Assembly: GCA_964490125.1 (NCBI GenBank)
Contig: CAZBAJ010000004.1
Span: 7,662-71,661, forward strand
Length of the DNA stretch: 64,000 nt
Direction of reading: 5' to 3'
Origin: an uncultured Candidatus Saccharibacteria bacterium
Lineage (GTDB): Bacteria > Patescibacteriota > WWE3 > UBA101185 > UBA10185
Shown here in pieces: positions 29,030-49,130 of the stretch. Made by a program: the position numbers and the translations under genes. The notes below the pieces were generated by a model, which saw only the letters and a program-made list of their open reading frames with translations, did not search any database and was not told where the DNA came from. Position 1 is the stretch's first letter; every line of letters starts with the position of its first letter.

Positions 29030-29338
29030 ATGAGTAACAATGTTCCTGTAGCCTTTGATTGGGACAAGGGCAACCTTTTTAAGAATAAAGACAAACACAG
29101 TGTTACTAACAAGGAAGCCGAGGAGGTCTTTTTTAATAGACCAATCAACATTTACAGGGATGTTGATCACTCTCAAAAAGAGGAAAGGTATGTAGCTTTT
29201 GGGGTTACTGACAGTGGGAGAAGGTTATATTTGGTTTTTACTATAAGAGCAGATAAAGTAAGGGTAATTTCGGTTCGTGACCAGAGCAGAAAAGAAAGGA
29301 ACATCTATGAACAAGGCAAAAATGATTCCACAATTTAA
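29030..29338 (+). CDS. brnT: BrnT-family ribonuclease toxin (DUF497)
   Basis: Contains FDWDKGNLFKNKDKHSVTNKEAEEVF...GRRLYLVFTIRADKVRVISVRDQSRKERNIYEQG. Confidence 0.7.
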   Translation: MSNNVPVAFDWDKGNLFKNKDKHSVTNKEAEEVFFNRPINIYRDVDHSQKEERYVAFGVTDSGRRLYLVFTIRADKVRVISVRDQSRKERNIYEQGKNDSTI

Positions 29339-29585
29339 AAATGAGGATGAGGAGAGGGCGTTTTGGCTGGTTAATGATTTTTCTGACTATGTCGACCAAT
29401 TTGAACCCGTCGAGATGGATTTGTCAGAGTTAAAGCCTTCAACCGAATCTATATCCCTAAGATTACCTATTGCCCTGCTTGCCAGGTTAAAGGAATTAGC
29501 AAATTCTCGGGATGTACCATACCAGTCCTTAATGAAGGTGTTTTTGACAGACAGAGTTAAAGCCGAAGTTGCAAAAAGCTACTAA
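29307..29585 (+). CDS. brnA: BrnA antitoxin (RHH/CopG-like)
   Basis: Contains IPQFKNEDEERAFW...LKPSTESISLRLPIALLARLKELANSRDVPYQSLMKVFL. Overlaps the brnT 3' end. Confidence 0.7.
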   Translation: MNKAKMIPQFKNEDEERAFWLVNDFSDYVDQFEPVEMDLSELKPSTESISLRLPIALLARLKELANSRDVPYQSLMKVFLTDRVKAEVAKSY

Positions 29586-29594
29586 TTTTGGTTT

Positions 29595-30830
29595 TTAGAC
29601 AACCTTGTAAACGGGCAAAAGCTTTTTTGGAAAGCCGTGAATTTCCCAAAACGCCCTTAAATCCTCTTCCGTAAGGTTGGCAAGTCCTTTAGCCTTAACA
29701 ACTTTGGCAATTTTGCGCGCACCCTTCTCCAAAGTCACTTTATATTCCTTCTCGTGGTCAAAAATTACCTCCAAACAAGTCGTCACCCCGTCACTTAAAT
29801 GTGGATACGGTTTTGCATACATTTGGACGACTTGGTGACGCAGTTTTGGCAAAAGTTCCTGCGGATTAAGTCCCTGCGCGTACATGGAAGAAAGTAGCCT
29901 GCGGATAAGCGTTCTAATAATCCTGCCACGGTCGGCTTTGCTGGGGACTATTTTTTCTTCCGCCAAAATAAATAAGAGCGACTTAATGTGGTCGGCAATA
30001 ATTTTTATATTCTCGTTAAGCTCACCTGTTGGCGCAATCAAATCGACTAAAGGTTTTAGGTATGATGTCAAATAAATGCTTTCCACCCCTTCCACAATCT
30101 TGGCGCACCGTTCCGCGCCAATAACTACCTCGGTGGATTTGTTTACTAAGTCGCCCAAAACCGGCTCTTTAGAATAGTCAATAAAATGCTCGATAAACAA
30201 AATGTTACTAATTTCCAAAAACCGTCCGCATTTGCAAAACGGGTTGCAATTTGGGTTTTGACAGTTTTGATTGACGCCCTGATCGTAAAAGAATTCCACC
30301 TGCGGACCGCACAGCTTGATGTTGTCCCTAAGATCCGCACCCCCGCCCTGTTCCCACAAATTGGTTTCTTTGTTGCCAAAAACCACCTGACCGTTTGCTG
30401 TTTTGGTGACAAAGTCTTTAAGTTCGGTTTCTAGATCAATTTCCCTACCCGCAACAACATCTTTGTTAAACACCGTTGCCCAAATATGTTTTGGATTGAT
30501 TTTTAGGACTTTGGTTAGAAATTCCCAAGTTAGGTTTACGGTATTGACCTTGTTATATTCAACCACTTCAAACGCTCCCGCCATTTCAAAAAAGCTTAAG
30601 TGACTCTCGTCGCCCACTTTTTCAATGTCAAAATGCCTAACGCACGGTTGAATTAAAACCTCTTTGGACGGATTTGCTGGATTTTTTGACCGTATTCTGG
30701 GGTCGAGTTGGACGAGACCTGCGGACATATTGAAGGATGTTGGAAAGACGGGGTGTACAAGCGACTCGTGGTCGATTCTTTTAAAACCCGCCTTTATGAA
30801 AGTGTCAATCCATGCAATATTAATATCCAT
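29595..30830 (-). CDS. Alanyl-tRNA synthetase catalytic/tRNA-recognition domain-only homolog (411 aa)
   Basis: Aligns to the AlaRS N-terminal ~440 aa: FNMSAGL, QPCVRHFDIEKVGDESHLSFFEMAGAF, LCGPQVEFFYDQG, IKIIADHIKSLLFILAEEKIVPSKADRGRIIRTLIRR. There is no editing or C-Ala domain. Confidence 0.65.
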   Translation of the reverse strand: MDINIAWIDTFIKAGFKRIDHESLVHPVFPTSFNMSAGLVQLDPRIRSKNPANPSKEVLIQPCVRHFDIEKVGDESHLSFFEMAGAFEVVEYNKVNTVNLTWEFLTKVLKINPKHIWATVFNKDVVAGREIDLETELKDFVTKTANGQVVFGNKETNLWEQGGGADLRDNIKLCGPQVEFFYDQGVNQNCQNPNCNPFCKCGRFLEISNILFIEHFIDYSKEPVLGDLVNKSTEVVIGAERCAKIVEGVESIYLTSYLKPLVDLIAPTGELNENIKIIADHIKSLLFILAEEKIVPSKADRGRIIRTLIRRLLSSMYAQGLNPQELLPKLRHQVVQMYAKPYPHLSDGVTTCLEVIFDHEKEYKVTLEKGARKIAKVVKAKGLANLTEEDLRAFWEIHGFPKKLLPVYKVV

Positions 30831-30849
30831 TGTGGTATTATATCAGAAT

Positions 30850-32290: not shown

Positions 32291-33244
32291 TTAAATCAGG
32301 CTCCCAACCAGTCTAACCATTTTTTCTTTGTCTTTTGGATTACTTTCCGAAATTAATATGGTTAAGGCAGTAAGTGCTGACGGTGTTAATTTGGCGGTGT
32401 TAAGAATTTTTGCTTGTTTTAAAAACCACACAAAAGCAAATGCGGCGCTTCTTTTATTGCCGTCCATAAACGGATGATCTTTAACCATAAAATACAAAAG
32501 GTTGGCGGATTTTTCTTCTACTGTAGGGTATAAGTCTTGACCCCCAAAGGACTGCATGACATTACCCACTATGCCAGAAAGTCTGCCTTGACTCTGTTCC
32601 GTCCCAAAAAGTTTGGTAGCCGTGCCTTTAGATAGTAAATCTGATTTTAAAGTTGCTAATTCTTGCTCGAGTTTTTGCGCGGTAATTTCCACAGACTTTT
32701 TAGTAGTTTTTTTAGTCTTTAACTGATCTTTGTCGTACGCCTCAAGAGAGACCCATGTGTCGGCGTAGGCGCTAATTAGTTCCATAACATCCTTGGTGTT
32801 TATAAGTTCGTTTCCAGGCAGGAGCAGTTTTATGTCTTCAACTGTTTTTAGGAATTGTTGATAGTTTTTTGCAATTAGCTTTTTGTTTATTGCATAACCC
32901 TGGGTAATATATTCTTTTAGGGTTTGGGTAGCCCACCGTCTAAAATCAATGGCTACCCTGGAATTTGTACGATATCCAACAGCCAGAATAAGGTCTAGTG
33001 AGTAGGCAAAAACGGGTTTAAAGGGGCTAGTAAAGTGCATTTTTTGCACATTACTCCTCCTTTTTACCTCCCGATCCTTAAAGATTTTGTTGATGTGTCT
33101 AGTCACAACCGTCCTCTCGATTCCAAAAAGTTCGGCTATTTGAGTTTGACTAGCCCAGATAGTTCCGCGTCTAGCGTCTCTTCTTAACTCTATTGCTCCG
33201 GATCTCGATTGATAAATAACTAGCTGATTATTTTTATTTGTCAT
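32291..33244 (-). CDS. RhuM-family N-terminal domain fused to a Fic/Doc domain protein
   Basis: The N-terminus is RhuM-like (virulence protein RhuM family). The C-terminal HPFMDGNKRSAAF motif matches the Doc-type Fic motif HxFx(D/N)GNKR. Confidence 0.6.
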   Translation of the reverse strand: MTNKNNQLVIYQSRSGAIELRRDARRGTIWASQTQIAELFGIERTVVTRHINKIFKDREVKRRSNVQKMHFTSPFKPVFAYSLDLILAVGYRTNSRVAIDFRRWATQTLKEYITQGYAINKKLIAKNYQQFLKTVEDIKLLLPGNELINTKDVMELISAYADTWVSLEAYDKDQLKTKKTTKKSVEITAQKLEQELATLKSDLLSKGTATKLFGTEQSQGRLSGIVGNVMQSFGGQDLYPTVEEKSANLLYFMVKDHPFMDGNKRSAAFAFVWFLKQAKILNTAKLTPSALTALTILISESNPKDKEKMVRLVGSLI

Positions 33245-36252: not shown

Positions 36253-37695
36253 ATGATGAATAACGAGTTACAAAAATATCTGCAAAATCAGATGATTCAA
36301 GCCCCAGAACGACTCTTAGGGATGATTAAAGATGTAGATGGCGAGCTTTTGTCCAAAAGGAGCGTTTTTTATGAGTTGGAAAAGAATATCCAACATTTCC
36401 TAGCTCGGAAGGAAGGAGCTAGGATGATTGTTATGCCAGGTCTTAGGGGTACAGGTAAAACTACTTTGTTAGCTCAACTCTACCTTTCTTTAACGGATCA
36501 AAATATTAGTAAAGTGTATTTATCTGTGGACGAGGTGGTTAAAAGATTCGATGCCAACCTTTGGGATGTAATGGAAAGCTACGAAGAGTTGATTTCTAAA
36601 CACATAGAGGAACTCGATACCCCCCTATTTTTATTTTTGGACGAGATACATTACGACGAGAAGTGGGCGTTTTTTTTAAAGACGCTTTACGATAAAACAA
36701 AAAAGGTGATGGTTTTTTGCACAGGTTCCTCCGCTTTACTGTTAAGACAGCAGATTAATGCTGATGTTGCCAGAAGAGTATATTTTACGGATATTCATCC
36801 AGTTGATTTTAGTGAATATCTATTGCTTAAGTCTAGAGTAGAACCGTTACAGGGTGTAAGTAGTTCCGTCAAGGACGCGATTTTATTTAGTAATGACGCC
36901 AAGGAGGTATACTATAAACTTCAAAAACTGGATCAAGCGATCAAAAGTTACTGGTTGAATATAGGTAGGTTTGAAGTTCAAAGATATCTTAAGTTTGGTA
37001 CATTCCCCTTTACGCTAAAGTCGGAAAACGATGTTTTGTCTACAAGTTTTATCTCCCAAATAATTAATAAAGTTATTTATACCGACATTCCTCAAATTTA
37101 TAAATTCGACCTTGCAACGCTTGACAGGGTTGATAAAACTCTCTATTTGATTTCCGATACTTTGGGTGTGAGTGCTACTAAACTAAGCGAGACATTAGGT
37201 TTGAGCATCGATACTTTACGACTTATCCTAAAAACCTTAGAGGAGTCTGGGCTTGTTACTAGGGTTCCTCCCTTTGGCACACATTTTAAACAAATTAGGA
37301 AGGCTTCTAAGTATCTTTTTGCTACCCCGTCGCTAAGGTACACATACCTATCTAGTAAGGAAAGTACAGCCGTTTTTGACAATTATCGAGGTAATTTATT
37401 TGAGGATCTCGTAGGCATGTACTTAAACCGAATTATTCCAAAATTTGGTGCCTTTTCTTTAACTTACGATGTTTCCGAGGGCGGTGCTGATTTTGTAATT
37501 TCTCAAGGCTTTAAACATATTGTTATGGAAGTTGGTATGGGTAAAAAAAGTTACAGTCAGGTAATTCAGACGACGCAAAAAATGGCGCCTAAAGTTACGC
37601 CTAAGTACAGCATAGTTATTTCTGGCAGTGATTTGGAATATTCGGAGCAGTATAATGCGGTAAAGATTCCCTTACAGTATTTTTTGCTTATCTAG
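36253..37695 (+). CDS. AAA-family ATPase with DUF4143-type C-terminal domain
   Basis: Walker A GLRGTGKTT and Walker B LFLDEIH are present. The architecture is typical of the widespread ATP-binding DUF4143 proteins. Confidence 0.55.
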   Translation: MMNNELQKYLQNQMIQAPERLLGMIKDVDGELLSKRSVFYELEKNIQHFLARKEGARMIVMPGLRGTGKTTLLAQLYLSLTDQNISKVYLSVDEVVKRFDANLWDVMESYEELISKHIEELDTPLFLFLDEIHYDEKWAFFLKTLYDKTKKVMVFCTGSSALLLRQQINADVARRVYFTDIHPVDFSEYLLLKSRVEPLQGVSSSVKDAILFSNDAKEVYYKLQKLDQAIKSYWLNIGRFEVQRYLKFGTFPFTLKSENDVLSTSFISQIINKVIYTDIPQIYKFDLATLDRVDKTLYLISDTLGVSATKLSETLGLSIDTLRLILKTLEESGLVTRVPPFGTHFKQIRKASKYLFATPSLRYTYLSSKESTAVFDNYRGNLFEDLVGMYLNRIIPKFGAFSLTYDVSEGGADFVISQGFKHIVMEVGMGKKSYSQVIQTTQKMAPKVTPKYSIVISGSDLEYSEQYNAVKIPLQYFLLI

Positions 37696-38124: not shown

Positions 38125-38457
38125 TTATAGTCCAAAAAAGTATTTAACGCGTTCCTCAAAACGCGTCTTAATTTCAGGATCGGAAATTTCGTAAGTCAGC
38201 CTGCCTTGTGCAGGTTTAAAGTTTGACATGGCTTGGTACTCTATTTTGTTTGAGGTCATATCCACTCCCCCGCCCCAAAGGTCTGCTTGTTTAGAACCGT
38301 TGTTGATTAGCACCTCCTCGCAATCTATATGATATTCTCCGCCCGCGCACAGCCAGCCGTTTTCCAAATCTACCACCACTTTTATGTAGTCGGGATACTT
38401 TTCTCGCAGGGGTTTAAAATCCTCGGTTGGAATTGCTTGTTTGTAAAGTTTAATCAT
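38125..38457 (-). CDS. Hypothetical protein (110 aa)
   Basis: ORF track. Overlaps the tyrS stop by 4 nt, i.e. it is coupled to tyrS. No recognisable motif. Confidence 0.45.
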   Translation of the reverse strand: MIKLYKQAIPTEDFKPLREKYPDYIKVVVDLENGWLCAGGEYHIDCEEVLINNGSKQADLWGGGVDMTSNKIEYQAMSNFKPAQGRLTYEISDPEIKTRFEERVKYFFGL

Positions 38458-39668
38458 TTTAAAATTGGACGTAAGAATTCGCGTTTACCGAATTTAATTA
38501 CCGTATCGGGATCCTTTATGACTTTCGCATTAAAGTTGGTTTCCTTCTGTCCGTCAACTTCCACCCCGCCTTGTTCTATTGTCCTTTTTATGTCGCTGGA
38601 CGAATATCTCTCTCCTACCGCAAGTTTTAGAAATTCCAGCAAGGTGACGCCCTCCGCTGTTTTTACTTCCACAATATTTTCCTGGGCAACTTCCTTTTTT
38701 TGCACCGTCGTCTCAAAGTTCTTTTCAGCTTTTTCAGCGTCGGCAAGCCCGTAAATAACTTCCACAATTCTTTTAGCCATAAGTTTTTTATAAAGCATTG
38801 GGTTTTCTCCGTTTGATAGAGCGACCTTAATTTGGGCAATTTCCTCAAGCGGTGTTTCCGTTAAAAGTTCCAAGCCGATTAAAATATGGCTATCGTCGTA
38901 CGACATGGCCTTGCCGTACATAGCTTCCGGCGGATCGGAAAGATTTATACCATTGCCTTTAGTTTTACTCATAGTACGACAGTCCGGCGCGTCCATCATA
39001 GTATTTGCCCGCACAAACATCTCTTTGCCTAAGTAAGCTTTAACAACCTGCCTTGCTGTAAGCATGTTAAAAATCTGGTCAGTTCCGCCAATTTGCAGGT
39101 CGACTTCCATAGCCACGCTGTCGTAACCTTGCATTAACGGATAAATGAACTCTTGGAGTTGAATAGGATCTTTGGAGGCTAGACGGCGCTGAAAATTGTC
39201 GCGCTCAATCATTTGTTGGACTGTGGCATGCGACATTAGCGTTATTAACTGCGCTAACTTAAGTTTGGAAAGCCATTCGTAATTTCTTTTAAACTGCACG
39301 GGATTTTCGCCCTCAAAATCAATCAGTCGGGAGGCTTGCTCCTTCCAACCCGCCATGTTTTTTTGGATTTCTTCATCGGTTAAAATTTTACGGGCGGAGT
39401 CTTTATCGGGGTCGCCTACTTTGGCTGTATAGTCGCCCACCAGAAAAATTACCTCATGTCCCATTTCCTGCAAAAGTCGTAAAGCTCTAATACCCATTGC
39501 GTGACCAACATGTAAATAAGGTCCGGTAGGGTCAAAGCCTTGGTAGACTTTTATTCTGTCGCCACTCAGCAACTTTTTTCTTAACTCGCCCACACTCGGA
39601 AAAATATTGGCTACTCCCCTAGTTAGGAACTTTTCTATCTTTTCTTGGTCGACAATAATTTTTGACAT
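38454..39668 (-). CDS. tyrS: Tyrosine--tRNA ligase
   Basis: Class I HIGH motif HVGH, a KMSKS-like TMSKT motif and a C-terminal S4-like domain. The start was chosen at MSKIIVDQEK. Confidence 0.8.
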   Translation of the reverse strand: MSKIIVDQEKIEKFLTRGVANIFPSVGELRKKLLSGDRIKVYQGFDPTGPYLHVGHAMGIRALRLLQEMGHEVIFLVGDYTAKVGDPDKDSARKILTDEEIQKNMAGWKEQASRLIDFEGENPVQFKRNYEWLSKLKLAQLITLMSHATVQQMIERDNFQRRLASKDPIQLQEFIYPLMQGYDSVAMEVDLQIGGTDQIFNMLTARQVVKAYLGKEMFVRANTMMDAPDCRTMSKTKGNGINLSDPPEAMYGKAMSYDDSHILIGLELLTETPLEEIAQIKVALSNGENPMLYKKLMAKRIVEVIYGLADAEKAEKNFETTVQKKEVAQENIVEVKTAEGVTLLEFLKLAVGERYSSSDIKRTIEQGGVEVDGQKETNFNAKVIKDPDTVIKFGKREFLRPILK

Positions 39669-39710
39669 GTTGGGTAGAATATACCACCGCAAAGGTGTTA
39701 AAATCAAAAG

Positions 39711-42446
39711 ATGATTAGGTCTAACCCTAGAACCAGAAGGAAAATATCCGCTTTTGTTTCTAAAGTCAGAGCAAAATTTAGTAGGACGACGGGTAGAGGG
39801 GCGACTTTGGGCGATTCTGCAGGTAGAAATGTAGTATTAGTGCGACGCAGGTACGCCAGCAAAAAATTGATGTTACTTACTTATTTTGCCACGGCGCTGT
39901 TGGTAAGTATTATAGGGTTTTTTGTTTTAACAATGGTGGTTTTTGCGGTTTACTCGTATCAACTCCCTTCGCCTGACAAACTTCTTAACCGTAGTCAGGA
40001 GCTGTCAACCAAGATTTTGGACAGAAACGGAAAGCCAATTTACGAGGTATATGGTGAAAAAAACCGCGAATTAATACAAATAAACGATATTGGCGTGAAT
40101 CTTCAGTATGCAACTTTAGCAACAGAAGACTCCGATTTTTATACCCATAGCGGATTTTCTCCCAGAGGTATGATTAGAGCTTTAAGAAACACTTTTTTTG
40201 GCGGGGATTTGCAGGGCGGTTCCACGCTTACTCAACAGGTGGTAAAAAATACGCTTTTGTCGCAGGAACGCACGGTAACAAGAAAGATTAAGGAATTTGT
40301 GTTGGCGTTGCAATTGGAAAGCAAATACTCTAAAAACGAGATTTTGCAAATGTATTTAAACGAAACACCTTACGGAGGTCAAAATTACGGAGTTTTGACA
40401 GCGTCTAAGGCATATTTTAATAAAGAGCCTAAGGATTTAACCTTGGCGGAATCGGCGTATTTGGCGGGTTTGCCTCAAAGTCCGTCCACCTACTCCTATT
40501 ATAGTAGTGACCCTGCAAAGGGCTTGGCGCGCAAAGACTATGTTTTGTACTTAATGAAGGTTCGTGGTTGGATGGGAGTTGACGGGAAAAGACATTTTAT
40601 TAGTGACGAAGATTACGAGGGCGCCAAAAAAGAGGAACTTAAATTTGAGCGCGCTCACGCCTCTTTTTTGGCGCCCCACTTCGTCTTTTATGTTAAAGAA
40701 CTTTTAGCCCAAAAATACGGCGAAGACCGTGTTGAGGGTGGCGGATTAATAGTTACAACCAGCTTGGATTTAACTGTCCAAGAAATGGCAGAAAAAATCG
40801 TTAAAGAAGAAGTCGCCAAAGCTAAAAACCTAAATGTGGGTAATGGCGCAATGGTGGTGATTGATCCTAAAACCGGTCAAATTTTGGCAATGGTAGGTTC
40901 TAAAGACTACTTTGGCGACACCGAACCTGAAAACTGCGTTTCCGGTGCCACGGGGGAAGGTTCGTGCGTGTTTGATCCCAACTTAAATGTCACACTTGCT
41001 TTGCGCCAACCCGGGTCGTCCATAAAACCTATAACTTACGCTACCATGCTTTCCCAAGGCTACACCGCATCCTTCCCGTTTATGGATGTTCCAACCACTT
41101 TTGAAAATATGGCGGGTCAAATGGTCTACAAACCGGAAAATTACGACGGCACTTTCCGCGGACCCATGTCGCTCCGCAAATCTCTGGGTAACTCTTTAAA
41201 CATTCCAGCGGTAAAAGCGCTAAAGATTGCGGGAATTTCTAACATGGTCGACCAGGCAAAAAAAATGGGCATTACTACTTTTAGTCGACCGGAAGGCTAC
41301 GGGTTGGCGCTAACCTTGGGTGGCGGTGAGACTAAACTTTTGGAAATGACCGGTGCGTTTAGCGTTTTTGCTGCCAAGGGCATGTTTAGACCACCGGAGG
41401 CTTTGTTGGAGGTTAAAGACGCTGGTGGCGCCTTGCTGTATAAGTGGGTTGACACAGGTGGGACTCGGGCGTTAAGCGAAGAAGTGGCTTTTTTAATTTC
41501 TGATATTTTGGCGGACGACGGCGCGCGAAGCGAGGCTTTTGGTTTTGGCAGTTTGTTAAATATTCCCGGACATCAGGTGGCGGTAAAAACAGGAACTACC
41601 GACGACAAGCGTGATAACTATGCCATGGGTTTTACACCCTACATTGTTATGGGTGCTTGGGTGGGCAATAATAATAACGACAAAATGAATCCGTATTTGG
41701 CGTCCGGTATAACAGGAGCCACACCAATCTACAACCGGTTTATGAAGGAATATATTAAGCTGTATTATGGCGACGACTCTAAAAAGCCCATTGAAAAGTT
41801 TGAACCGCCCAAGAACATCAAAAAAATGGAGGTGGACAAACTGACTGGTATGTTGCCCACAGGAGAATATGACCGACGGCAAGAGTGGTTTGTTACCGGT
41901 ACAGAGCCTACGGCGGTGAGCGACTGGTATCAAAAGCTGGAAGTCTGCAAGGTGGATGGAAAGATTGCTAATCAGGCTTGTAAGGATGCAGGTAAATCAA
42001 AGCAAAAAACCTATATTAAAATAAAAGCCGAGCTTCCGGAATGGCAGGACTTTGTGGACAATTGGGTGGCGGAGCGGTTTAAGGACGATGATACTTATTT
42101 CCCGCCCACTTCTACCTCCCGACTTTCCTTTGACAGCGACGGCAAATCTTCTGGCGACAAGATTTCTGCCGACATTGTAGGTTTTACGGACGGTCAAACG
42201 GTGCCACTAGAGTTTAGGTTAAAGGTTGACGCTTGGAGTGAAGACGAAATCGACCAAGTAAGTATTTATTTAGACGACGAGAAGGTTACTGACGACGGCT
42301 CCTTTCCTTACGGTTACAACTTTGTCTTTAAACCGTCCGACGCCGGGGAAAAAGAATTTAGAATAAAAGCCCGTGATAAAAACGGTCGCACCGCTGAAGA
42401 TAAAATAAAGCTTATCATCTATGGTGGTGATAATACCGCAAATTAA
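39711..42446 (+). CDS. Class A penicillin-binding protein (bifunctional transglycosylase/transpeptidase, PBP1A-type)
   Basis: Has the GT51 motifs (EDSDFYTHSGFSPRG, QGGSTLTQQ) and the transpeptidase SxxK (GSSIKP) and KTGT motifs. A C-terminal ~150-aa extension is present. Confidence 0.8.
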   Translation: MIRSNPRTRRKISAFVSKVRAKFSRTTGRGATLGDSAGRNVVLVRRRYASKKLMLLTYFATALLVSIIGFFVLTMVVFAVYSYQLPSPDKLLNRSQELSTKILDRNGKPIYEVYGEKNRELIQINDIGVNLQYATLATEDSDFYTHSGFSPRGMIRALRNTFFGGDLQGGSTLTQQVVKNTLLSQERTVTRKIKEFVLALQLESKYSKNEILQMYLNETPYGGQNYGVLTASKAYFNKEPKDLTLAESAYLAGLPQSPSTYSYYSSDPAKGLARKDYVLYLMKVRGWMGVDGKRHFISDEDYEGAKKEELKFERAHASFLAPHFVFYVKELLAQKYGEDRVEGGGLIVTTSLDLTVQEMAEKIVKEEVAKAKNLNVGNGAMVVIDPKTGQILAMVGSKDYFGDTEPENCVSGATGEGSCVFDPNLNVTLALRQPGSSIKPITYATMLSQGYTASFPFMDVPTTFENMAGQMVYKPENYDGTFRGPMSLRKSLGNSLNIPAVKALKIAGISNMVDQAKKMGITTFSRPEGYGLALTLGGGETKLLEMTGAFSVFAAKGMFRPPEALLEVKDAGGALLYKWVDTGGTRALSEEVAFLISDILADDGARSEAFGFGSLLNIPGHQVAVKTGTTDDKRDNYAMGFTPYIVMGAWVGNNNNDKMNPYLASGITGATPIYNRFMKEYIKLYYGDDSKKPIEKFEPPKNIKKMEVDKLTGMLPTGEYDRRQEWFVTGTEPTAVSDWYQKLEVCKVDGKIANQACKDAGKSKQKTYIKIKAELPEWQDFVDNWVAERFKDDDTYFPPTSTSRLSFDSDGKSSGDKISADIVGFTDGQTVPLEFRLKVDAWSEDEIDQVSIYLDDEKVTDDGSFPYGYNFVFKPSDAGEKEFRIKARDKNGRTAEDKIKLIIYGGDNTAN

Positions 42447-44446
42447 CTTCTTATTCGAGCATCGAGGGTAGTTTTCAGATTGGTTAAGGTACGGTTGATG
42501 GACGCATTCGCTTGTTCCTGTGTTAAGTTTGTTTGGGGAAATATTTTAATTAGGACTGATCTCAAGTTTTTATCGAGGTGATCGTCCACATACTCCTCCA
42601 AAAACTCTACTTTAGCGATCTCATTCGATTTTGCCACGAAGTCGATTACTTTACCAACCGATAGATCTTTAGGTATCAGAAGCGATACATCAACACTCCG
42701 CCGGTCTAGAATATCTGCAACAATTCTTTGTGTTTGACGGTGAGCCGTCAATAGAACTTCTGTAAAGAGTGTAAAGCCGTTATATCTTATAGTTCCCAGA
42801 ACCTTGTCGTTATGTTTTATCTGGGCTTCTTGTGGTCTAACCTTTGTAATCGATATATCTCTCATGCCGAGTATCTTAAAAAGTCCGCCAAGAATAGAAG
42901 AGGTTTGTTTATGTAATTCTTTTGGACTTTTTTCCTTGTCAAAAACCAGGCATTCCAAAACCCGGACTTCCTTATAAGTTGCGTAATCTTTCTTGTCGCC
43001 CTGTTGCGTATAAACCTTGCCGACCTCAAAAAGTACACCACTTGGGATTTGATTCTTGATGTAGTTTGGAACGATGTTTTCTAAAGTGTCCGCGATGGAA
43101 AGTCGCAACGCATTTTTTTGAGAATTTTGCGAATTCTCTAGGACAATTTGATTTCCCGCGGATTTCTTGTCACGGGAAAGTATGCTGGAAACCAGTGGAT
43201 CTGTAATATGCTCGTGCGCGCCAAGTTGAACTAGCGCGTCGCGTAATGTTTCTTCAAATTTATAAATTTCCGAAGTAATTTCTTTAGGTGGCGCGCTTTG
43301 AATTTGTGCCGTAGGAATTTTTGTGTAGCCGTTTATGCGCAAAATGTCGGAAACTATATCGTCTTCCACTTCAATGTCGGTTCTAAAATACGGGACTATG
43401 AGTTTTTGCTCCCATTCGGAAACATCTTTCTCGCTAGAAATTTTAGTTTGTCTAATACTTTGCGAATTGTGATCGTAGACTACCTCGTAACCCAACCGGG
43501 TTAGAATATCCACAGCCATATCTTTTTCGATTTCAAAACCTGCTAGTGTTCTAAGACGGCTCGACCTTAGAACCATTTCCTTAGGTTGACTTTGTTTGGG
43601 GTTCCAGTCGACATTTTGGTAGTATTCCCCTCCCGCCAGCTCTAGAATCAAGTAAGTTGCGCGTTCTATGGCGTATTGCGTTAGGTTTGGATGTAAAAAT
43701 TTATCGTATCTTAAAACCGTCTCGTTTTGGATTTTTAATTTGCGTGACACTTTTCTAATAATGTTTTGATTGTAGTTTCCTGCGTCTAAAATTATGTCCG
43801 TTGTGTTTTTATCTACACCTGTTTCCCGTCCGCCAACAATTCCCCCGAGTACAGTTGCTACTCCATATTGAGTAAGAACAAACGCTTCTGGGTACAAAGT
43901 AACCTCGTCGCCCAGAAATGTACATAACCTCTCCTCATTGCGGGCTTTGCGGATCACAACCTCTTGCTTTCTGAACTTAGCTAAATCTTGGGCGTGCATG
44001 GGCTGACCAAGTTCCACCATGACATAATTTGTAATATCTACGATGTTATTAATCGAGGGTATTCCGTATTCCTCCAAACGATTTTTTAACCACACTGGCG
44101 ATGGTTTTACCTTGATGTTTCTGAAAACTACAGTATTAAATCGATTGACGACATCGGAACATTCTACTTTAATGTCAACAAGTTGATTGGATGTAGGTTT
44201 TTTTCCTTCCTTTGTGTATGTCTGTGGTAGTTTTAAATCCCTGCCAAGATAGGCCGATAGATCTCGAGCGCAACCAAGTATCGAGAGCCAATCGGAGCGG
44301 TCAAAGCGGTGTTCCAAATCAAACACCCTTCCGTCAAAAGGTTTGTCTAACATTAAACCAATTTGCGTAAAAGCATCGCTGATCTCTGTTGGCGACAAGC
44401 CCTCCAAGTCGACATATTCTTTTAGCCAGTCCAAAGGTATTCTCAC
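42443..44446 (-). CDS. pheT: Phenylalanine--tRNA ligase beta subunit (short form, 667 aa)
   Basis: N-terminal tRNA-binding/B3-4 domains are recognisable. Overlaps the PBP gene end by 4 nt. Confidence 0.75.
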   Translation of the reverse strand: MRIPLDWLKEYVDLEGLSPTEISDAFTQIGLMLDKPFDGRVFDLEHRFDRSDWLSILGCARDLSAYLGRDLKLPQTYTKEGKKPTSNQLVDIKVECSDVVNRFNTVVFRNIKVKPSPVWLKNRLEEYGIPSINNIVDITNYVMVELGQPMHAQDLAKFRKQEVVIRKARNEERLCTFLGDEVTLYPEAFVLTQYGVATVLGGIVGGRETGVDKNTTDIILDAGNYNQNIIRKVSRKLKIQNETVLRYDKFLHPNLTQYAIERATYLILELAGGEYYQNVDWNPKQSQPKEMVLRSSRLRTLAGFEIEKDMAVDILTRLGYEVVYDHNSQSIRQTKISSEKDVSEWEQKLIVPYFRTDIEVEDDIVSDILRINGYTKIPTAQIQSAPPKEITSEIYKFEETLRDALVQLGAHEHITDPLVSSILSRDKKSAGNQIVLENSQNSQKNALRLSIADTLENIVPNYIKNQIPSGVLFEVGKVYTQQGDKKDYATYKEVRVLECLVFDKEKSPKELHKQTSSILGGLFKILGMRDISITKVRPQEAQIKHNDKVLGTIRYNGFTLFTEVLLTAHRQTQRIVADILDRRSVDVSLLIPKDLSVGKVIDFVAKSNEIAKVEFLEEYVDDHLDKNLRSVLIKIFPQTNLTQEQANASINRTLTNLKTTLDARIRS

Positions 44447-44458
44447 AGTTTTTTGACT

Positions 44459-45508
44459 TTAAATATACGCAAGTCCTCCATATAATTTTCTAATGTCGCT
44501 GATGCCAAATTTTGCCATAACTAGGCGGTCTAACCCCATACCCCAAGCAAAACCAGTATAAACTTCCGGATCAATTCCGCTCATTTTTAAGGTGTTGTAG
44601 TGAATCATGCCACAGCCCAAAACTTCCATCCAGCCCCGTTGCTTGCAAACCGTACAACCTGCGCCATTACAAAAGCGACATTTAACATCTACCCCCATGC
44701 CGGGCGACACTTCCGGATAATATTTATATCTAAATCGTAGCTCAATGTTGTCGTCCTCAAATAAGTATTGGTGAAACCTCTCCATTAACCACTTAAGATT
44801 CTGAATAGTAATTCCTTTGTCGACCACAAAACCCTGGTATTGATGAAAAAAAGAAGAATTTGTTGGATTGGCAGTCTCGTTTCTATAGCACTTCCCCGGT
44901 ACTACAACCCTTATTGGCGGTTTGTACGACTCTAAAATTCGTGCCTCTATAGACGAAGTATGCGTTCGTAGCAGAATATCTGGCTCACTAACAAACAATG
45001 TGTCCTGCAAATCTGTGGCGGGGTGACCCTCCGGCAAGTTAAGTCGCCTAAAATTGTACTCCGCAGTTTCAATTTCCGTTCCCTCGCCTATGGAAAAGCC
45101 GTAATATCTAAAAAACTCATTCATTTGGCGGATGACTTGAGTTGTGGGGTGCAAGTAGCCTGTTTTGACTGGTGGATACGGGATGGTTAAGTCGATGTCA
45201 GCGTCGGTAATTTGGGCTTGGTGGTAATCTTGTCGACCTTTTTCTATGCTTTCTTCAATATATTTTTTAAGCTCGTTTAATTTGGGACCCAGCTCCCTTT
45301 TTTCCTCCAGAGACAATTTTCCTAAGGATTTTATCTCCTGTGTCAGTAGTCCGTGGGTTTTGGAAAGATACTTTAAGTACAAGTCGTCAAAACAGCCCGA
45401 ACAAACCGCGACTTCTAAATCTTTATCAAAACGGCTTTTTAGTTCAAGGTCAGTAAGGTTGAGACTAGCCGATGTTTTAATCTCTTCTAAACTCTTTCTA
45501 CTTGACAT
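44459..45508 (-). CDS. pheS: Phenylalanine--tRNA ligase alpha subunit
   Basis: Has the class II motifs (FRYKYYPEVSPGMGVD, GWMEVLGCGM, GFAWGMGLDRL). Confidence 0.8.
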   Translation of the reverse strand: MSSRKSLEEIKTSASLNLTDLELKSRFDKDLEVAVCSGCFDDLYLKYLSKTHGLLTQEIKSLGKLSLEEKRELGPKLNELKKYIEESIEKGRQDYHQAQITDADIDLTIPYPPVKTGYLHPTTQVIRQMNEFFRYYGFSIGEGTEIETAEYNFRRLNLPEGHPATDLQDTLFVSEPDILLRTHTSSIEARILESYKPPIRVVVPGKCYRNETANPTNSSFFHQYQGFVVDKGITIQNLKWLMERFHQYLFEDDNIELRFRYKYYPEVSPGMGVDVKCRFCNGAGCTVCKQRGWMEVLGCGMIHYNTLKMSGIDPEVYTGFAWGMGLDRLVMAKFGISDIRKLYGGLAYI

Positions 45509-45596
45509 ATACTTTTGATTATACTACAATAGCAACATCACCATGGAAGGAATACCAAAGGGTTTTGTCCCCAGGGAATACCTTCCTTTTTTGTGC

Positions 45597-46097
45597 CTAT
45601 TTCTCGACTTTATTTCTGAACATTGTTACGACTGTTATGTAATTACCGAATTCCCTCAGTAGTGAAGAGTATTTATGATTTGGAACTACAATTTTTACTA
45701 GTTTGTTGTTTTGTTCTAAATACTTCGCGAGGCAGTAAAAATCGCCATCGCCGGAAACAATTACAGCGCCGCCATAATTAGGAAATTCTGCCATAGTATG
45801 TAAAACCAGTTCCGAATCTACATTGCCTTTTATTACAATCTGTCCGCTTTGAGTTTTCTCTATGACAGGTTTAAAGATAAGTTCGTATCCGTTTTTCTCT
45901 AATTCATCGTAAAGTTTCTGACGACTTGGTATGTAGCCTATAAATAGAAAAGCTTTTGATACGCTGTAAGAGTCCTTTAGATAAATTCTAAACTTCTTAA
46001 AATCCAGTTTCCAGCCTTGCGACCGAACACCTAGATTAAGGTTTTGACTGTCGATAAAAGCGTAGATAGGTTTTTGGTTTTGTAATAATTCGGACAT
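45597..46097 (-). CDS. NYN-domain (LabA-like) protein
   Basis: Has the NYN/PIN-like acidic residues FIDSQNL...GNVDSEL...VSGDGDF. Confidence 0.6.
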   Translation of the reverse strand: MSELLQNQKPIYAFIDSQNLNLGVRSQGWKLDFKKFRIYLKDSYSVSKAFLFIGYIPSRQKLYDELEKNGYELIFKPVIEKTQSGQIVIKGNVDSELVLHTMAEFPNYGGAVIVSGDGDFYCLAKYLEQNNKLVKIVVPNHKYSSLLREFGNYITVVTMFRNKVEK

Positions 46098-46159
46098 ACT
46101 AAATAAGTCGTACCGCTAACTAATCATCTTGCTGGGCGGGAATAGTTTTAAACCAATCT

Positions 46160-46516
46160 TTAACTCGTTAGGTGGGGCTTTACAACTTCCAAAACCGCTT
46201 TGAACCCGTCCATGTCAGAGTAAGCAAGTTCCGACAAAGATTTTCGGTCCAGTTCTATTTTTGCCTTCTTAAGTCCGGCTATAAACCGGCTGTACATTCT
46301 ATTCTCACCAGCAAGCGCTCCGCTTAGCCTGGCAATCCAAAGTCGTCTCATATCCCGTCGCCTAATTTTTCTACCTGCAAAAGCATGCTCCCCTGCCCTA
46401 ACAACTGCCTCATTAGCTTTTCTAAACTGCTTGCTTCTGGCACCTCTAAAACCCCGCGCTCCCGCCAAAACTTTAACTTTTTTTTGATGACCTCTTGGTC
46501 CGCCTTTAATTCTCAT
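46160..46516 (-). CDS. rplT: 50S ribosomal protein L20
   Basis: Typical L20 sequence (KVLAGARGFRGARSK...RRDMRRLWIARL). Confidence 0.85.
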   Translation of the reverse strand: MRIKGGPRGHQKKVKVLAGARGFRGARSKQFRKANEAVVRAGEHAFAGRKIRRRDMRRLWIARLSGALAGENRMYSRFIAGLKKAKIELDRKSLSELAYSDMDGFKAVLEVVKPHLTS

Positions 46517-46522
46517 AATTTA

Positions 46523-46735
46523 TTATAGGTTTTTCCCATACTTTCCGAGCATTTTCTTAAATCTGCCCTTAATTTTTTTGTTTTTAAATACGCCTACTAC
46601 CCTTGCCCTCTGCTTGTGTCCAGTTTTTTTATTGACCTTTAGGTGTTTTAGCCCCACCTTACTTTTGCGCACCACACCGTTTTTACTAATCTTTATTCTT
46701 CTTATTAAGGTTTTTCTAGTTTTTAACTTTGGCAT
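46523..46735 (-). CDS. rpmI: 50S ribosomal protein L35
   Basis: Starts MPKLKTRKTLIRRIK at the internal Met of the ORF-track entry. Confidence 0.8.
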   Translation of the reverse strand: MPKLKTRKTLIRRIKISKNGVVRKSKVGLKHLKVNKKTGHKQRARVVGVFKNKKIKGRFKKMLGKYGKNL

Positions 46736-46799
46736 TATAATCCTTTTGGTCAACACTACTCGCTACAAATTTATCAACTTTTCAGTTTCTCTAGTCAAG

Positions 46800-47306
46800 C
46801 TACTTCTTAACAAAAGTCACCGAAATTGTATTTCCCATCCGCTTTGGTTCCGATTCCACCTTGGCAAACGGCTCCATTAACTTAATAAACTTACCTATCT
46901 TTTCTTGCGCGACTTGGGGAAACATCGCTTGGCGGCCCTTCATCATCAAACTTACCTTAACCACATTCCCCTCTTCCAAAAACTCCACCGCCCGATTCAC
47001 GCGTTGTTGCGTGTCGCCCTCACTAATTGTTGTACTTAGTCGCAATTCCTTAAGCTCGGTTTGCTTGCTTTTACCCTTAGCGTCGCTCGACTTTTTGCGT
47101 TCAGCATACAAAAACTTGTTAAAGTCCACAATCTTTGCAACCGGAGGACTCGCATTTTCCGTTACCACTACAACATCCAGATCCTTTTCCTCGGCAATTT
47201 GCAAGGCTTTATGCGTTTCCATTACCCCAAGATTCTCACCCGTCGCCAACAGCACCCGTAACTGCGGGTACTTTATTCTATGATTTATTTGGTAATTTCG
47301 CTCTAT
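46800..47306 (-). CDS. infC: Translation initiation factor IF-3 with probable non-AUG (ATA) start
   Basis: The conserved N-terminal segment QINHRIKYPQLRVLLATGENLGV lies upstream of the track's GTG start. The in-frame ATA codon at 47306-47304 is 6 nt after a GGAGG SD (47317-47313). A TAG stop lies 12 codons upstream. Confidence 0.65.
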   Translation of the reverse strand: MERNYQINHRIKYPQLRVLLATGENLGVMETHKALQIAEEKDLDVVVVTENASPPVAKIVDFNKFLYAERKKSSDAKGKSKQTELKELRLSTTISEGDTQQRVNRAVEFLEEGNVVKVSLMMKGRQAMFPQVAQEKIGKFIKLMEPFAKVESEPKRMGNTISVTFVKK

Positions 47307-47339
47307 AGCTTTCCTCCGTGCAAAAATGCAAGCCTAAAG

Positions 47340-49130
47340 TTACCACAAATCTAGGGCTTTGGTCAAATATTTCTGTACGACTTTTTGGACAAACTCCTCC
47401 GTCTTAACCATTCCCACCGTTTTTCCGTCCCGCAGTCGCACATTTACGCAGTCTTCCGACTCCTCTTTTGCTCCCAGTACCAACATGTACGGCACTTTTT
47501 GCATCTGCGCGTCGCGGATTTTTGCCTGCATCATTTCATCCTTTTCGTTAACCTCCACCCGCAAGCTCTTTTCTTTAAGCAATTTGGCGACTTTTTGGGC
47601 ATACTCATTGTTTTTTTCGGAAATAGGAATTATTGCGACTTGAACTGGCGCCAGCCAGACAGGGAATGCTCCGGCAAAATGCTCTATCAACAAAGCCATA
47701 AGTCGTTCGTACGATCCCAAAACCGCCCGATGAAGCATAACCGGCGTTGCTTCTTTACCGGTTTTGTCTATGTAGACTAGCTTAAAGCGTTTGGGTGTAG
47801 CAAAATCCAGCTGGATGGTTGGAATTTGAATTTCCTTGCCTAAGGCGTCCTTAAACATAAAATCTAGCTTTGGACCGTATAGGGCAGCCTCGCCTTCGCG
47901 TCGGACGGCATTAAGCCCCATTTCGTCGGAAATTTCCTGCAAGGTCCGTTCGGCCAAATCCCAGGACTGTTGGTCACCGATATATTTTTCTGGATGGGCG
48001 TAATCCCTAACCGACAACGAAACCCAATGGCTCTCCCAAAGTCCTAATGACAAATAAAAATCCTTAATAACATTGGCCAGGCTTCTTATTTCGTCTTTGA
48101 CTTGTTCAGGGGTGCAAAAAACATGTCCATCTTCAATCGTAATAGCATATACACGGTTTAAACCACCAACTTCTCCCGCTTTTTCCGCCCGGTACTGTTT
48201 GTCTGATTCCATGTAGCGGATTGGCAATTCGTTGTATGACCTTATTTTGGACGCGTAGATTTGGGTATGGTGTGGGCACTGGACAGGCTTCATAACCAAA
48301 TTATGATTTGCCGCAGATGTTACATGGAACAGTTCTTCGCCAAACTTGGCGGCATGGCCGGAAGTTTCAAAAAGTTCGATTTTGGCAAGCGATGGGGCGG
48401 AAACTTTTTGAAAACCGTAATTTCTGCAAACTGCCTCAATGTGTTTTTGGAGTTCTTCTTTAATGATTGTTCCTTTGGGGGTATAAAGAGGCAATCCCGG
48501 TCCAACTAAATCAGAAAAGCAAAACAAGTCCAGTTCTCTGCCCAGCTTTCTATGGTCGCGCTTTTTGGCCTCTTCAATATTGCGCAAGTATTCGTCCAGC
48601 GCCTCTTTAGAATCAAATGCCGTGCCGTAAATGCGCTGGAGCATCTTGTTTTTTTCGTCGCCCTTATAATACGCGCCGGCAATTGAAAACAGTTTAAACG
48701 CCTTAATTTCTCCGGTCGACGCCACATGCGGACCTGCGCACAAATCAACATCGTAATAAGGACTTTGGGGGTCGCCCGTTACATACACCGTTACTTTTTC
48801 CCCGCGCGACTCAATTTCTTTAATATTTTCCAGCTTGTACCAATTGTCGCCAAAAAGCTTTTTAGCCTCCTCCACACCTACTTCTTTGCGGATAATCGGC
48901 AGATTAGCGTCCACCATTTTTTGCATTTCAGCCTCGATTTTTGGCAGATCCTCGGGGGTAATTTTGGTATCCAAATCAAAGTCAAAATAGAAACCGTCTT
49001 CTATGGGCGGTCCCATGACTTTTTTAAGATTTGGATACATGCGTTGCATTACGCAGTGCAGGACATGTTCTGCGCTGTGTCGCAGAGGCATTAACGGGTC
49101 GTTTTTTAATTCATTTTGGACTTTAGACAT
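47340..49130 (-). CDS. thrS: Threonine--tRNA ligase (no N-terminal TGS domain)
   Basis: Has the class II motifs HRKLGRELDLF and the catalytic and anticodon-binding domains. At 596 aa it begins at the N2/editing-like region. Confidence 0.8.
   Translation of the reverse strand: MSKVQNELKNDPLMPLRHSAEHVLHCVMQRMYPNLKKVMGPPIEDGFYFDFDLDTKITPEDLPKIEAEMQKMVDANLPIIRKEVGVEEAKKLFGDNWYKLENIKEIESRGEKVTVYVTGDPQSPYYDVDLCAGPHVASTGEIKAFKLFSIAGAYYKGDEKNKMLQRIYGTAFDSKEALDEYLRNIEEAKKRDHRKLGRELDLFCFSDLVGPGLPLYTPKGTIIKEELQKHIEAVCRNYGFQKVSAPSLAKIELFETSGHAAKFGEELFHVTSAANHNLVMKPVQCPHHTQIYASKIRSYNELPIRYMESDKQYRAEKAGEVGGLNRVYAITIEDGHVFCTPEQVKDEIRSLANVIKDFYLSLGLWESHWVSLSVRDYAHPEKYIGDQQSWDLAERTLQEISDEMGLNAVRREGEAALYGPKLDFMFKDALGKEIQIPTIQLDFATPKRFKLVYIDKTGKEATPVMLHRAVLGSYERLMALLIEHFAGAFPVWLAPVQVAIIPISEKNNEYAQKVAKLLKEKSLRVEVNEKDEMMQAKIRDAQMQKVPYMLVLGAKEESEDCVNVRLRDGKTVGMVKTEEFVQKVVQKYLTKALDLW

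Follow-up and report, generated by a model that had tools for sequence, protein, structure and literature searches.

The AlaRS-like gene

The gene described here encodes a stand-alone protein similar to alanyl-tRNA synthetase (AlaRS). It lies in a stretch of 64,000 nucleotides (nt) of contig CAZBAJ010000004.1 from an uncultured Candidatus Saccharibacteria bacterium, a member of the Patescibacteria, or candidate phyla radiation (CPR); this whole 64-kb stretch is what we analyzed and is called the window below. The open reading frame (ORF) list places a 411-amino-acid (aa) AlaRS-like ORF, running from ATG to stop, exactly at 29595-30830 of the minus strand, and an identical protein (P0001) was called on independent contigs. 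We estimate at roughly 0.55 the probability that this gene is a solitary member of a family of AlaRS-like proteins derived from the catalytic fragment of the enzyme and is not the alanine-tRNA ligase of the organism. We named this group the E/V-type AlaRS-like family (E/V family) for the Glu and Val found at E. coli positions 235 and 237. That the protein is a non-housekeeping paralog, whatever its mechanism, is in our judgment highly probable. The gene and the parts of its product are as follows.

29595..30830, minus strand: AlaRS-like gene, complete (stop codon 29595-29597; ORF list and PF01411)
30096..30830, minus strand: residues 1-245, class II catalytic core with an antiparallel beta-sheet (alignment and secondary structure of the model)
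29598..30095, minus strand: residues 246-411, bundle of helices that corresponds to the tRNA-recognition domain of AlaRS (alignment; helices 273-398 in the model)
30228..30263, minus strand: Cys cluster C190-x4-C195-x3-C199-x-C201 (read from the sequence)

Domain architecture and predicted structure

The window protein has the AlaRS aminoacylation and tRNA-recognition fold. The first-pass annotation, made from the sequence alone, had described it as a stand-alone homolog of the aminoacylation domain without an editing or a C-Ala domain, and Pfam, phmmer and the combination of AlphaFold2 and Foldseek agree with that description. The Pfam profile PF01411 (tRNA-synt_2c) covers residues 4-404 on profile positions 3-400 of 552 with E = 6.5e-59, and no other domain was found in the 411 aa, neither an editing (tRNA_SAD) nor a C-Ala domain; canonical CPR AlaRS carry PF07973. 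A phmmer search of the PDB aligned residues 2-404 with AlaRS catalytic fragments, among them Methylomonas 9jc7 (2e-37) and residues 7-407 of E. coli 3hxu (2e-29). The earlier statement that the protein aligns along its length with the AlaRS N-terminus is therefore right for the full-length match and too generous in its extent of ~440 residues, as the match reaches E. coli residue ~407-414. An AlphaFold2 model built from 31 homologs has a predicted local distance difference test score (pLDDT) of 93.5 and a predicted template modeling score (pTM) of 0.91, and Foldseek matched it to AlaRS catalytic fragments with a template modeling (TM) score of ~0.8; the next fold was that of bacterial GlyRS-alpha.

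The tRNA-recognition bundle holds a conserved basic helix, D-R-G-R-I-I-R-T-L-I-R-R. The Cys cluster sits in an insertion that is common to short-type (CPR or PRK01584-like) AlaRS, and similar Cys/His clusters occur in the canonical CPR AlaRS P0044-P0066; in the window protein the cluster is possibly a metal site.

Nucleotide site and amino acid pocket

Residue maps were drawn from alignments of 30-60 family members with up to 61 canonical AlaRS, and E. coli numbering follows the chain index of 3hxu, in which R69 and K73 fall as published. The window protein keeps the residues that surround the adenine nucleotide: R65 (E. coli R69), F81 (F90), E82 (E91), W159 (W170), E206 (E209), N209 (N212), G238 (G239), E240 (E241) and R241 (R242). 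Across the E/V family R69, F90, R242, E209, N212 and W170 are invariant, and G239 and E241 are likewise kept. In the 9jc7 structure the adenine is stacked between Phe89 and Arg232 and Arg68 lies on the alpha-phosphate, which correspond to E. coli F90, R242 and R69 (PMC12143591). Judged by these alignments, the adenine-nucleotide site is intact.

The pocket for the amino acid is another matter. Canonical motif 3 starts with D-T-G-M-G-L-E-R, and the following changes are seen at this and other pocket positions.

30108..30131, minus strand: motif 3 start, E234-V235-V236-I237-G238-A239-E240-R241 (ungapped alignment anchored on G-x-E-R)
Asp235 (alpha-amino binding): Glu in all members; E234 in the window protein
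Gly237 (lines the pocket): Val in all members; V236 in the window protein
Val214 (contact to the alanine methyl): Leu or Ile in the family; L211 in the window protein, 30198..30200, minus strand
Asn95 (GNFSFGDY motif): Ala in all members
Met43 (pocket residue): Leu in all members

The first-pass annotation had named the equivalents of Arg69, Asp235 and Gly237 as active-site residues to be checked; the first is kept and the other two are replaced, by Glu and Val. Glu at 235 and Val at 237 are present in 100% of both clades of the family, while Asp, Gly and Val at 235, 237 and 214 are present in 98-100% of the 61 canonical AlaRS. In the E. coli enzyme Asp235 binds the alpha-amino group of alanine, and the alanine methyl is contacted by Val204 of the Methylomonas enzyme, the equivalent of E. 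coli Val214; there the single mutants V204L and V204A, an experimental precedent for the change, have a lower kcat/Km for alanine, and the double mutant V204L/L219M is inactive on alanine and serine and even on glycine (PMC12143591). As far as aligned residues can tell, the residues that hold alanine have been replaced in every family member and the amino acid pocket has been rebuilt.

Of the 59 positions with at least 93% invariance in the 61 canonical AlaRS, 31 are retained in the CPR clade and 32 in the non-CPR clade, and new residues common to both clades stand at positions 37, 235, 237 and 307 (L37F, D235E, G237V and Y307R). The resulting signature, S40, L43, A95, Q172, L/I214, E235 and V237 together with the kept R69, W170, N212 and R242, is complete in the window protein and unchanged across all host groups of the family. 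A four-residue deletion in motif 2 (AGGK, including Lys73) was considered as a sign of functional loss and rejected; it is not informative because bona fide CPR AlaRS have it too.

tRNA-recognition residues and the C-terminal end

29937..29939, minus strand: K298, aligned with the Asn reader of the G3:U70 pair (E. coli Asn303 when Met is counted, 302 in 3hxu)

K298 was placed by pairwise HMMER alignments (PSN/PSK), and the family consensus at this point is P-G-K/R. The Asn normally found here reads the G3:U70 base pair (PMC10036535). Both G3:U70 readers are replaced in the window protein, Asn303 by Lys298 and Asp400 by Glu; this is not decisive, since canonical CPR AlaRS likewise differ at one of these positions or at both. 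The loss of Asn303 had been tried as proof that recognition of tRNA-Ala was lost and was dropped, given that the Tupanvirus mini-AlaRS stays specific without the Asn (PMC10036535).

The protein ends 10 residues past the GFP motif (G399-F-P). This tail measures 6-21 residues in the CPR proteins, has a median of 33 residues in the non-CPR clade, and spans 35-57 residues in the active fragments AlaRS429, AlaRS441 and N461 (PMC12143591; PMC10036535). The CPR tail is short, and the last recognition-domain helix of the canonical fragments is therefore missing. For the same reason the earlier remark that an N-terminal fragment of this size is catalytically competent holds only loosely: the window protein has a shorter tail than the active fragments that can be cited.

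Relationship to canonical AlaRS

The window protein fails both alaS equivalog models, scoring 194.8 bits with TIGR00344 (cutoff 457) and 181.3 bits with NF002436 (cutoff 529), in each case less than half of the cutoff. A neighbor-joining tree (100 bootstraps) unites the canonical AlaRS, the ~600-aa CPR type among them, in one monophyletic group (100%), and the short proteins fall outside it. Those from CPR cluster together in a clade (98%) that is sister to the non-CPR clade (93%), and the E/V family without the Planctomycete-type short proteins has a bootstrap of only 65%. By this tree, therefore, the window gene did not arise through recent truncation of a CPR alaS. A second lineage of short AlaRS-like proteins of 368-388 aa, represented by P0055 and P0062 (Planctomycetes) and P0067, has Glu or His at 235, keeps Gly237 and has Thr at 212; it branches near the E/V family and not reliably inside it.

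The short ~600-aa alaS of the CPR or PRK01584 type shares with the window protein the recognition and aminoacylation fold (TM ~0.8) and the adenine-nucleotide residues, and it has the four-residue motif-2 deletion and the Cys-rich insertion in common with the family. These last two shared features suggest that the family branched from the short-type AlaRS lineage, and this is probably how it arose. Unlike canonical alaS, the family has no editing domain and has replaced Asp235, Gly237, Val214, Asn95, Tyr307 and Asn303, and the window protein itself is set apart by its scores below the cutoffs, its separate clade, its rarity and the lack of the last recognition helix.

Strong purifying selection acts on the window gene. 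Compared with the intact ORF of a 78%-identical ortholog (L003), the ratio of nonsynonymous to synonymous substitution rates (dN/dS) is ~0.05, with dS saturated. The CPR clade has a constant length (392-425 aa) and invariant active-site residues in members down to ~38% identity. Disruptions were seen in 2 of 9 CPR genome copies: L003 (2587-3823) has a frameshift near codon 60, and in L058 (8267-9528), from a Gottesmanbacteria metagenome-assembled genome (MAG), the paralog is split into three consecutive ORFs. These may be assembly errors or real decay.

Distribution of the family

The family is spread broadly but sparsely. A search of 5.8 billion proteins gave only ~43 clusters (90% identity) of stand-alone relatives of 390-490 aa, one of them the NCBI "alanine--tRNA ligase-related protein" from a Beckwithbacteria MAG and another from Roizmanbacteria. 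An exhaustive profile search of 1.84 billion representatives gave ~60-70 clusters (50% identity), counted down to the point where ordinary 870-aa AlaRS begin (~275 bits). A scan of GTDB with one genome per species gave 73 loci, ~9 of them in CPR. The CPR carriers are Beckwith-, Roizman- and Gottesmanbacteria and MAGs labeled Saccharibacteria. Outside CPR the carriers are Anaerolineae and other Chloroflexota, filamentous cyanobacteria (Phormidium, Spirulina, Leptolyngbyaceae), the Thiothrix/Thiofilum/Thiolinea group, Saprospiraceae, Methylococcaceae and others, some with complete multi-Mb chromosomes. These non-CPR hosts (L009-L065), which also include Caldilineaceae and Promineifilaceae, are overwhelmingly filamentous or multicellular.

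The first-pass annotation had left open a paralog with a new role, and this is the option that the data favor, through the sub-cutoff scores, the pocket replacements, the separate clade, the sporadic distribution and the kinase linkage in other phyla described below. Annotation pipelines and some databases, as UniRef and IMG names show, call the protein "alanine--tRNA ligase". Such a label would mislead metabolic reconstructions and completeness estimates of CPR genomes, and the window gene should be neither annotated nor counted as alaS.

As to the canonical enzyme, searches with canonical CPR AlaRS (profile A2; P0268), of which the best 120 of >8000 matches were listed, show that Patescibacteria normally have an AlaRS of ~600 aa made up of catalytic and editing domains. 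The Microgenomates (Shapirobacteria) have such an ordinary ~600-aa AlaRS with an editing domain. None of the paralog-carrying assemblies (GCA_001789695.1, GCA_040961665.1 and others) was among these best 120 of >8000 AlaRS matches. Non-CPR hosts presumably have a standard alaS, the enzyme being essential. Neither the 64-kb window nor any fetched flank contains a canonical alaS or AlaX, and neither the window nor the ~80 loci contain a beta-subunit-like gene or AlaX; a tblastn search with editing-domain halves against the window and all loci matched only the N-terminus of ThrRS. Two other proteins came from these searches: P0460 (963 aa), in which the catalytic and editing domains of a canonical-type AlaRS are joined to the membrane domain PF03706 (LPG_synthase_TM), and P0447 (720 aa), from a Patescibacteria genome and named "alanine--tRNA ligase-related protein".

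Genomic context outside CPR

Gene neighborhoods in the non-CPR clade have a conserved composition. Of the 45 non-CPR loci whose sequence extends far enough, 42 have a gene for a protein with GAF domains (up to 11) directly after the AlaRS-like gene and in the same orientation. A histidine-kinase ATPase domain (HATPase_c) is encoded by this gene as well in 32 of the 45, the others ending at contig ends. In all non-CPR lineages sampled, the AlaRS-like domain either opens the operon of a multi-GAF histidine kinase or forms the N-terminal part of a fusion with one. A receiver domain (REC) is found in 61/87 of the next one to three genes, and the remaining domains are variable effectors: CHAT, caspase, TIR, Schlafen/AlbA_2, trypsin-like, TCAD9, EAD8 and EAD11. 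Effector domains of this kind are the vocabulary of the conflict systems of multicellular prokaryotes, in the description of which no AlaRS-like component is mentioned (PMC7159879).

The link of the AlaRS-like domain to GAF kinases is confirmed by fusions. In L028/P0233 and P0230 the AlaRS-like domain is joined to a GAF array, in part with a kinase; P0230 (1718 aa) has one AlaRS-like domain, a long GAF array and the kinase. P0215 and P0216 (1448-1488 aa) have two tandem AlaRS-like domains followed by GAFs and a histidine kinase, and P0214 (910 aa) is the tandem pair alone. The Glu/Val signature is present in every AlaRS-like copy of P0214, P0215, P0216 and P0230. The N-terminus of a sensor kinase is the usual place of its input domains. 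An operon variant in the Thiothrix group (L053, L055, L057 and L060; e.g., L055:11230-15828) has a GAF protein of 1009-1065 aa in which no kinase ATPase domain was detected, followed by a conserved protein of 431-498 aa without a Pfam match.

PADLOC has no defense-system model that includes the AlaRS-like protein, and the literature gave no description of a system combining an AlaRS-like protein, GAF domains and a caspase, only a table entry in a review of cyanobacterial orthocaspases. The link of the family to GAF kinases, receivers and variable effectors appears to be undescribed so far.

The neighborhoods of the CPR paralogs are variable. Two recurrent proteins without Pfam matches were considered as conserved CPR partners and discarded, being present only in subsets of the CPR loci and absent from the window. 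One, of ~270 aa and seen only in CPR, lies directly downstream in L004:3361-4179, L005:3118-3933 and L080:9469-10281, with 55-60% identity and varying orientation; the other, of 769 or 1057 aa and likewise CPR-only, lies directly downstream in L078:9251-11560 and L076:9295-12468.

Proposed role

We propose that, along with an adenine nucleotide, the window protein would bind some acyl or aminoacyl group, though not alanine in its free form, and that this would probably take place at or close to the acceptor end of an RNA. In general terms the protein would bind a ligand related to aminoacylation or convert it, much as AcmF, a protein compared below, takes an aminoacyl group from aminoacyl-tRNA. 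Outside CPR the ligand event would serve as the input of a GAF kinase two-component cascade. The CPR module would have lost the last helix and any linked kinase, and may act alone or with an unlinked partner. A mechanism of this sensor or ligand-transfer kind is a tentative proposal, to which we give somewhat less than even odds.

GCN2 offers an analogy for the logic, as its HisRS-like regulatory domain is derived from a synthetase, is catalytically degenerate and acts as the input of a protein kinase. In the fused forms of the E/V family, AlaRS-like domain, GAF array and histidine kinase are combined in the same way, with a synthetase-derived domain as kinase input. Unlike GCN2, the family involves another synthetase, another kinase class and another domain of life, it keeps the residues of the nucleotide site, and its CPR copy is unlinked to a kinase.

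A stronger version of the proposal, possible but on the whole unlikely, is that the AlaRS-derived domain is the dedicated sensory input of a widespread and unrecognized two-component conflict or cell-death system of filamentous bacteria, of which CPR keep a shortened, solitary and partner-independent version. The sensed ligands could be tRNA ends, whether charged or not, or molecules resembling aminoacyl-adenylates, toxin mimics for example, and the signal would pass from the AlaRS-like domain through the GAF histidine kinase to caspase, CHAT, TIR or Schlafen effectors. If the domain does sense tRNA charging or aminoacyl-adenylate-like molecules, translation machinery would be joined to two-component and programmed-death signaling, and if this sensory reading is true the system would be a bacterial counterpart of the GCN2 logic.

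Several observations weigh against our interpretation. No homologs of the GAF, kinase, receiver or effector proteins were found in the window or near the other CPR loci. The CPR copies thus have no signaling neighbors, and a sensor role for the window gene is an extrapolation from the sister clade. Catalytic-type residues are strictly conserved, which suits an enzyme no less than a sensor, and the ligand of the window protein is only a predicted one. The evidence for a canonical alaS beside the paralog is at the level of the group; no same-genome pair appeared for any CPR carrier in the window, in the fetched flanks or among the best 120 of >8000 matches. Finally, the loss of Asn303 is not diagnostic because the Tupanvirus mini-AlaRS without this Asn still charges tRNA-Ala.

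Synthetase paralogs with non-translational roles are already known. To our knowledge no synthetase has a more conserved architecture than AlaRS, and we know of no truncated AlaRS paralog characterized so far other than AcmF. The E/V family would be the second truncated AlaRS-like family, broad but sparse and with its own invariant active-site signature. Its interest lies in a translation-enzyme scaffold tied to bacterial signaling and in the unexplained solitary form in CPR.

Alternative explanations

The alternative that fares best, although we consider it improbable, is that the window protein is an AcmF-like transferase, which would move an aminoacyl group from aminoacyl-tRNA to a nucleotide-like or small acceptor in the adenine-nucleotide site, or the reverse, and so make a metabolite. 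AcmF, from ascamycin biosynthesis in Streptomyces, is an AlaRS-like aminoacyl transferase in a clade apart from AlaRS; it moves the alanyl group from Ala-tRNA to a nucleoside sulfamate in the adenylate site, and its Glu232 is essential (PMC12945691). Compared by its described features, it is the closest characterized analogue of the window protein. Both consist of aminoacylation and tRNA-recognition domains only, both have Glu at the equivalent of Asp235 and both lack the Asn/Asp readers of G3:U70 (PMC12945691). The invariant adenine-site residues of the family would suit such an enzyme, and the solitary CPR context agrees with an enzyme that works alone and so requires no partner. The two proteins differ in that AcmF has Gln in place of Asn212 and has reportedly lost most ATP-binding residues, while the E/V family keeps N212 and the residues of the nucleotide site (PMC12945691). 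Val237 and Leu214 would crowd an alanyl group. AcmF is encoded in a nucleoside-sulfamate cluster together with the dedicated AlaRS AcmD and the hydrolase AcmE; the window gene stands among housekeeping genes and a toxin-antitoxin pair, with no biosynthetic cluster or acceptor-making genes nearby and with neighborhoods that vary among CPR. The sister-clade domain, too, is an N-terminal kinase input and has no biosynthetic cluster.

Slightly less probable than a transferase is a neo-synthetase, an active class II enzyme whose substrate has become one smaller than alanine or unlike it, for instance glycine or a non-proteinogenic or hydroxy acid, which it would activate with ATP and load onto tRNA or another acceptor. 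The invariant motif 2 and motif 3 arginines, E209, N212 and W170, and the retention of about half of the canonical invariant positions are in keeping with this. An acidic residue at 235 could still hold an amino group, the basic helix that would bind the acceptor helix is conserved, and the next-nearest fold is that of GlyRS-alpha. The Val-to-Leu change at the equivalent of position 214 argues the other way, having blocked even glycine in one experimental background (PMC12143591). No tRNA gene is linked to the AlaRS-like gene (a tRNA-Val was the sole match in the Rfam scan), nor is there a linked consumer of a novel aminoacyl-tRNA or an editing partner, and a translation-type role does not sit easily with the kinase fusions seen in the sister clade.

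The first-pass annotation had also offered a split or minimal housekeeping AlaRS without editing. That the 411-aa protein is the sole alanine-tRNA ligase of the cell, lacking editing in cis as do the Tupanvirus enzyme or the Nanoarchaeum alpha subunit, is very unlikely. CPR genomes are reduced and their canonical AlaRS already lack C-Ala, no second alaS lies within the window, the motif 2 and motif 3 arginines are intact, and a natural mini-AlaRS works without the Asn/Asp readers (PMC10036535). This natural example, the 461-aa TuAlaRS of Tupanvirus, charges tRNA-Ala, rescues a yeast ALA1 knockout and clusters with host AlaRS (PMC10036535). Like the window protein it is an aminoacylation domain only. 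It has retained motifs 1-3, and its recognition domain is complete, including a long C-terminal helix (PMC10036535); the window protein, by contrast, falls in a separate clade, and its alanine pocket is rebuilt and its C-terminus shorter. In Nanoarchaeum equitans, whose AlaRS is split into alpha and beta subunits, the alpha subunit likewise comprises the catalytic domain, standing alone, and a portion of the recognition domain (PMC10036535), but the catalytic residues of the window protein differ from it, and no partner-subunit gene was found in the window or beside family members. The invariant D235E, G237V and V214L all line the alanine site, and Val-to-Leu at the equivalent of 214 reduces or abolishes activity in experiments (PMC12143591). 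The scores below half of the alaS cutoffs, the position outside the canonical clade with its CPR AlaRS, the occurrence in only ~9 CPR species of the GTDB scan with two copies disrupted, the presence of the family in multi-Mb genomes and in kinase fusions, and the normal ~600-aa AlaRS of Microgenomates all argue against a housekeeping enzyme, as do a length below that of any citable active fragment and the lack of a beta-subunit or AlaX gene nearby.

Least probable of all is that the gene is a decaying, non-functional relic of a horizontally acquired sensor system whose kinase partner was lost in CPR, which the missing partner genes, the lost C-terminal helix and the two disrupted copies (the L003 frameshift and the three ORFs of L058) would suit, but which is opposed by the dN/dS of ~0.05 against a 78%-identical ortholog, the constant length and invariant active site across a deep CPR clade, and the confident and complete AlphaFold2 model, the two disruptions possibly being MAG assembly errors.

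Neighboring genes and the remainder of the window

The features next to the AlaRS-like gene are listed below.

29030-29338, plus strand: BrnT ribonuclease toxin (overlaps the BrnA ORF)
29277-29585, plus strand: BrnA/CopG antitoxin (overlaps the BrnT ORF)
30837..30842, minus strand: TATAAT hexamer, 6 nt before the ATG and inside the 19-nt gap to the EamA gene (read from the sequence)

The BrnT/BrnA toxin-antitoxin pair lies downstream and is convergent with the AlaRS-like gene at a distance of 9 nt, in accord with the earlier observation that the downstream DNA encodes unrelated genes. Upstream, a divergent gene for an EamA transporter is separated from the AlaRS-like gene by a gap of 19 nt. 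Both neighbors are unrelated genes on the opposite strand, so that the AlaRS-like gene appears to be monocistronic, transcribed as a single-gene transcript. No Shine-Dalgarno sequence was found upstream of its ATG, and a consensus scanner gave no full sigma-70 match near the gene, the sigma-70 and terminator scan being uninformative. The TATAAT is a weak candidate and possibly belongs to the promoter of a leaderless or near-leaderless mRNA.

The remaining window holds ordinary CPR housekeeping genes, namely gyrAB, H+-pyrophosphatase, a type IV pilus ATPase, PBP1, PheRS-beta, ThrRS, ATP synthase, RecG, RsmD, NusB and RNase III. Two of the synthetases belong to a gene cluster at 42443-49130.

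42443-44446: PheRS-beta
47340-49130: ThrRS with an N-terminal tRNA_SAD editing domain

A 349-aa ORF at 44459-45508, beside PheRS-beta, may be PheRS-alpha, and a class Ib aminoacyl-tRNA synthetase is encoded at 38454-39707. Among the housekeeping genes of this part (RsmD, RecG and the class Ib synthetase) there are also a Fic/DOC and RhuM protein (32291-33244, minus strand) and an AAA_14/DUF4143 ATPase (36253-37695, plus strand). Together with BrnTA, these two genes give the region a mild flavor of accessory or conflict genes.

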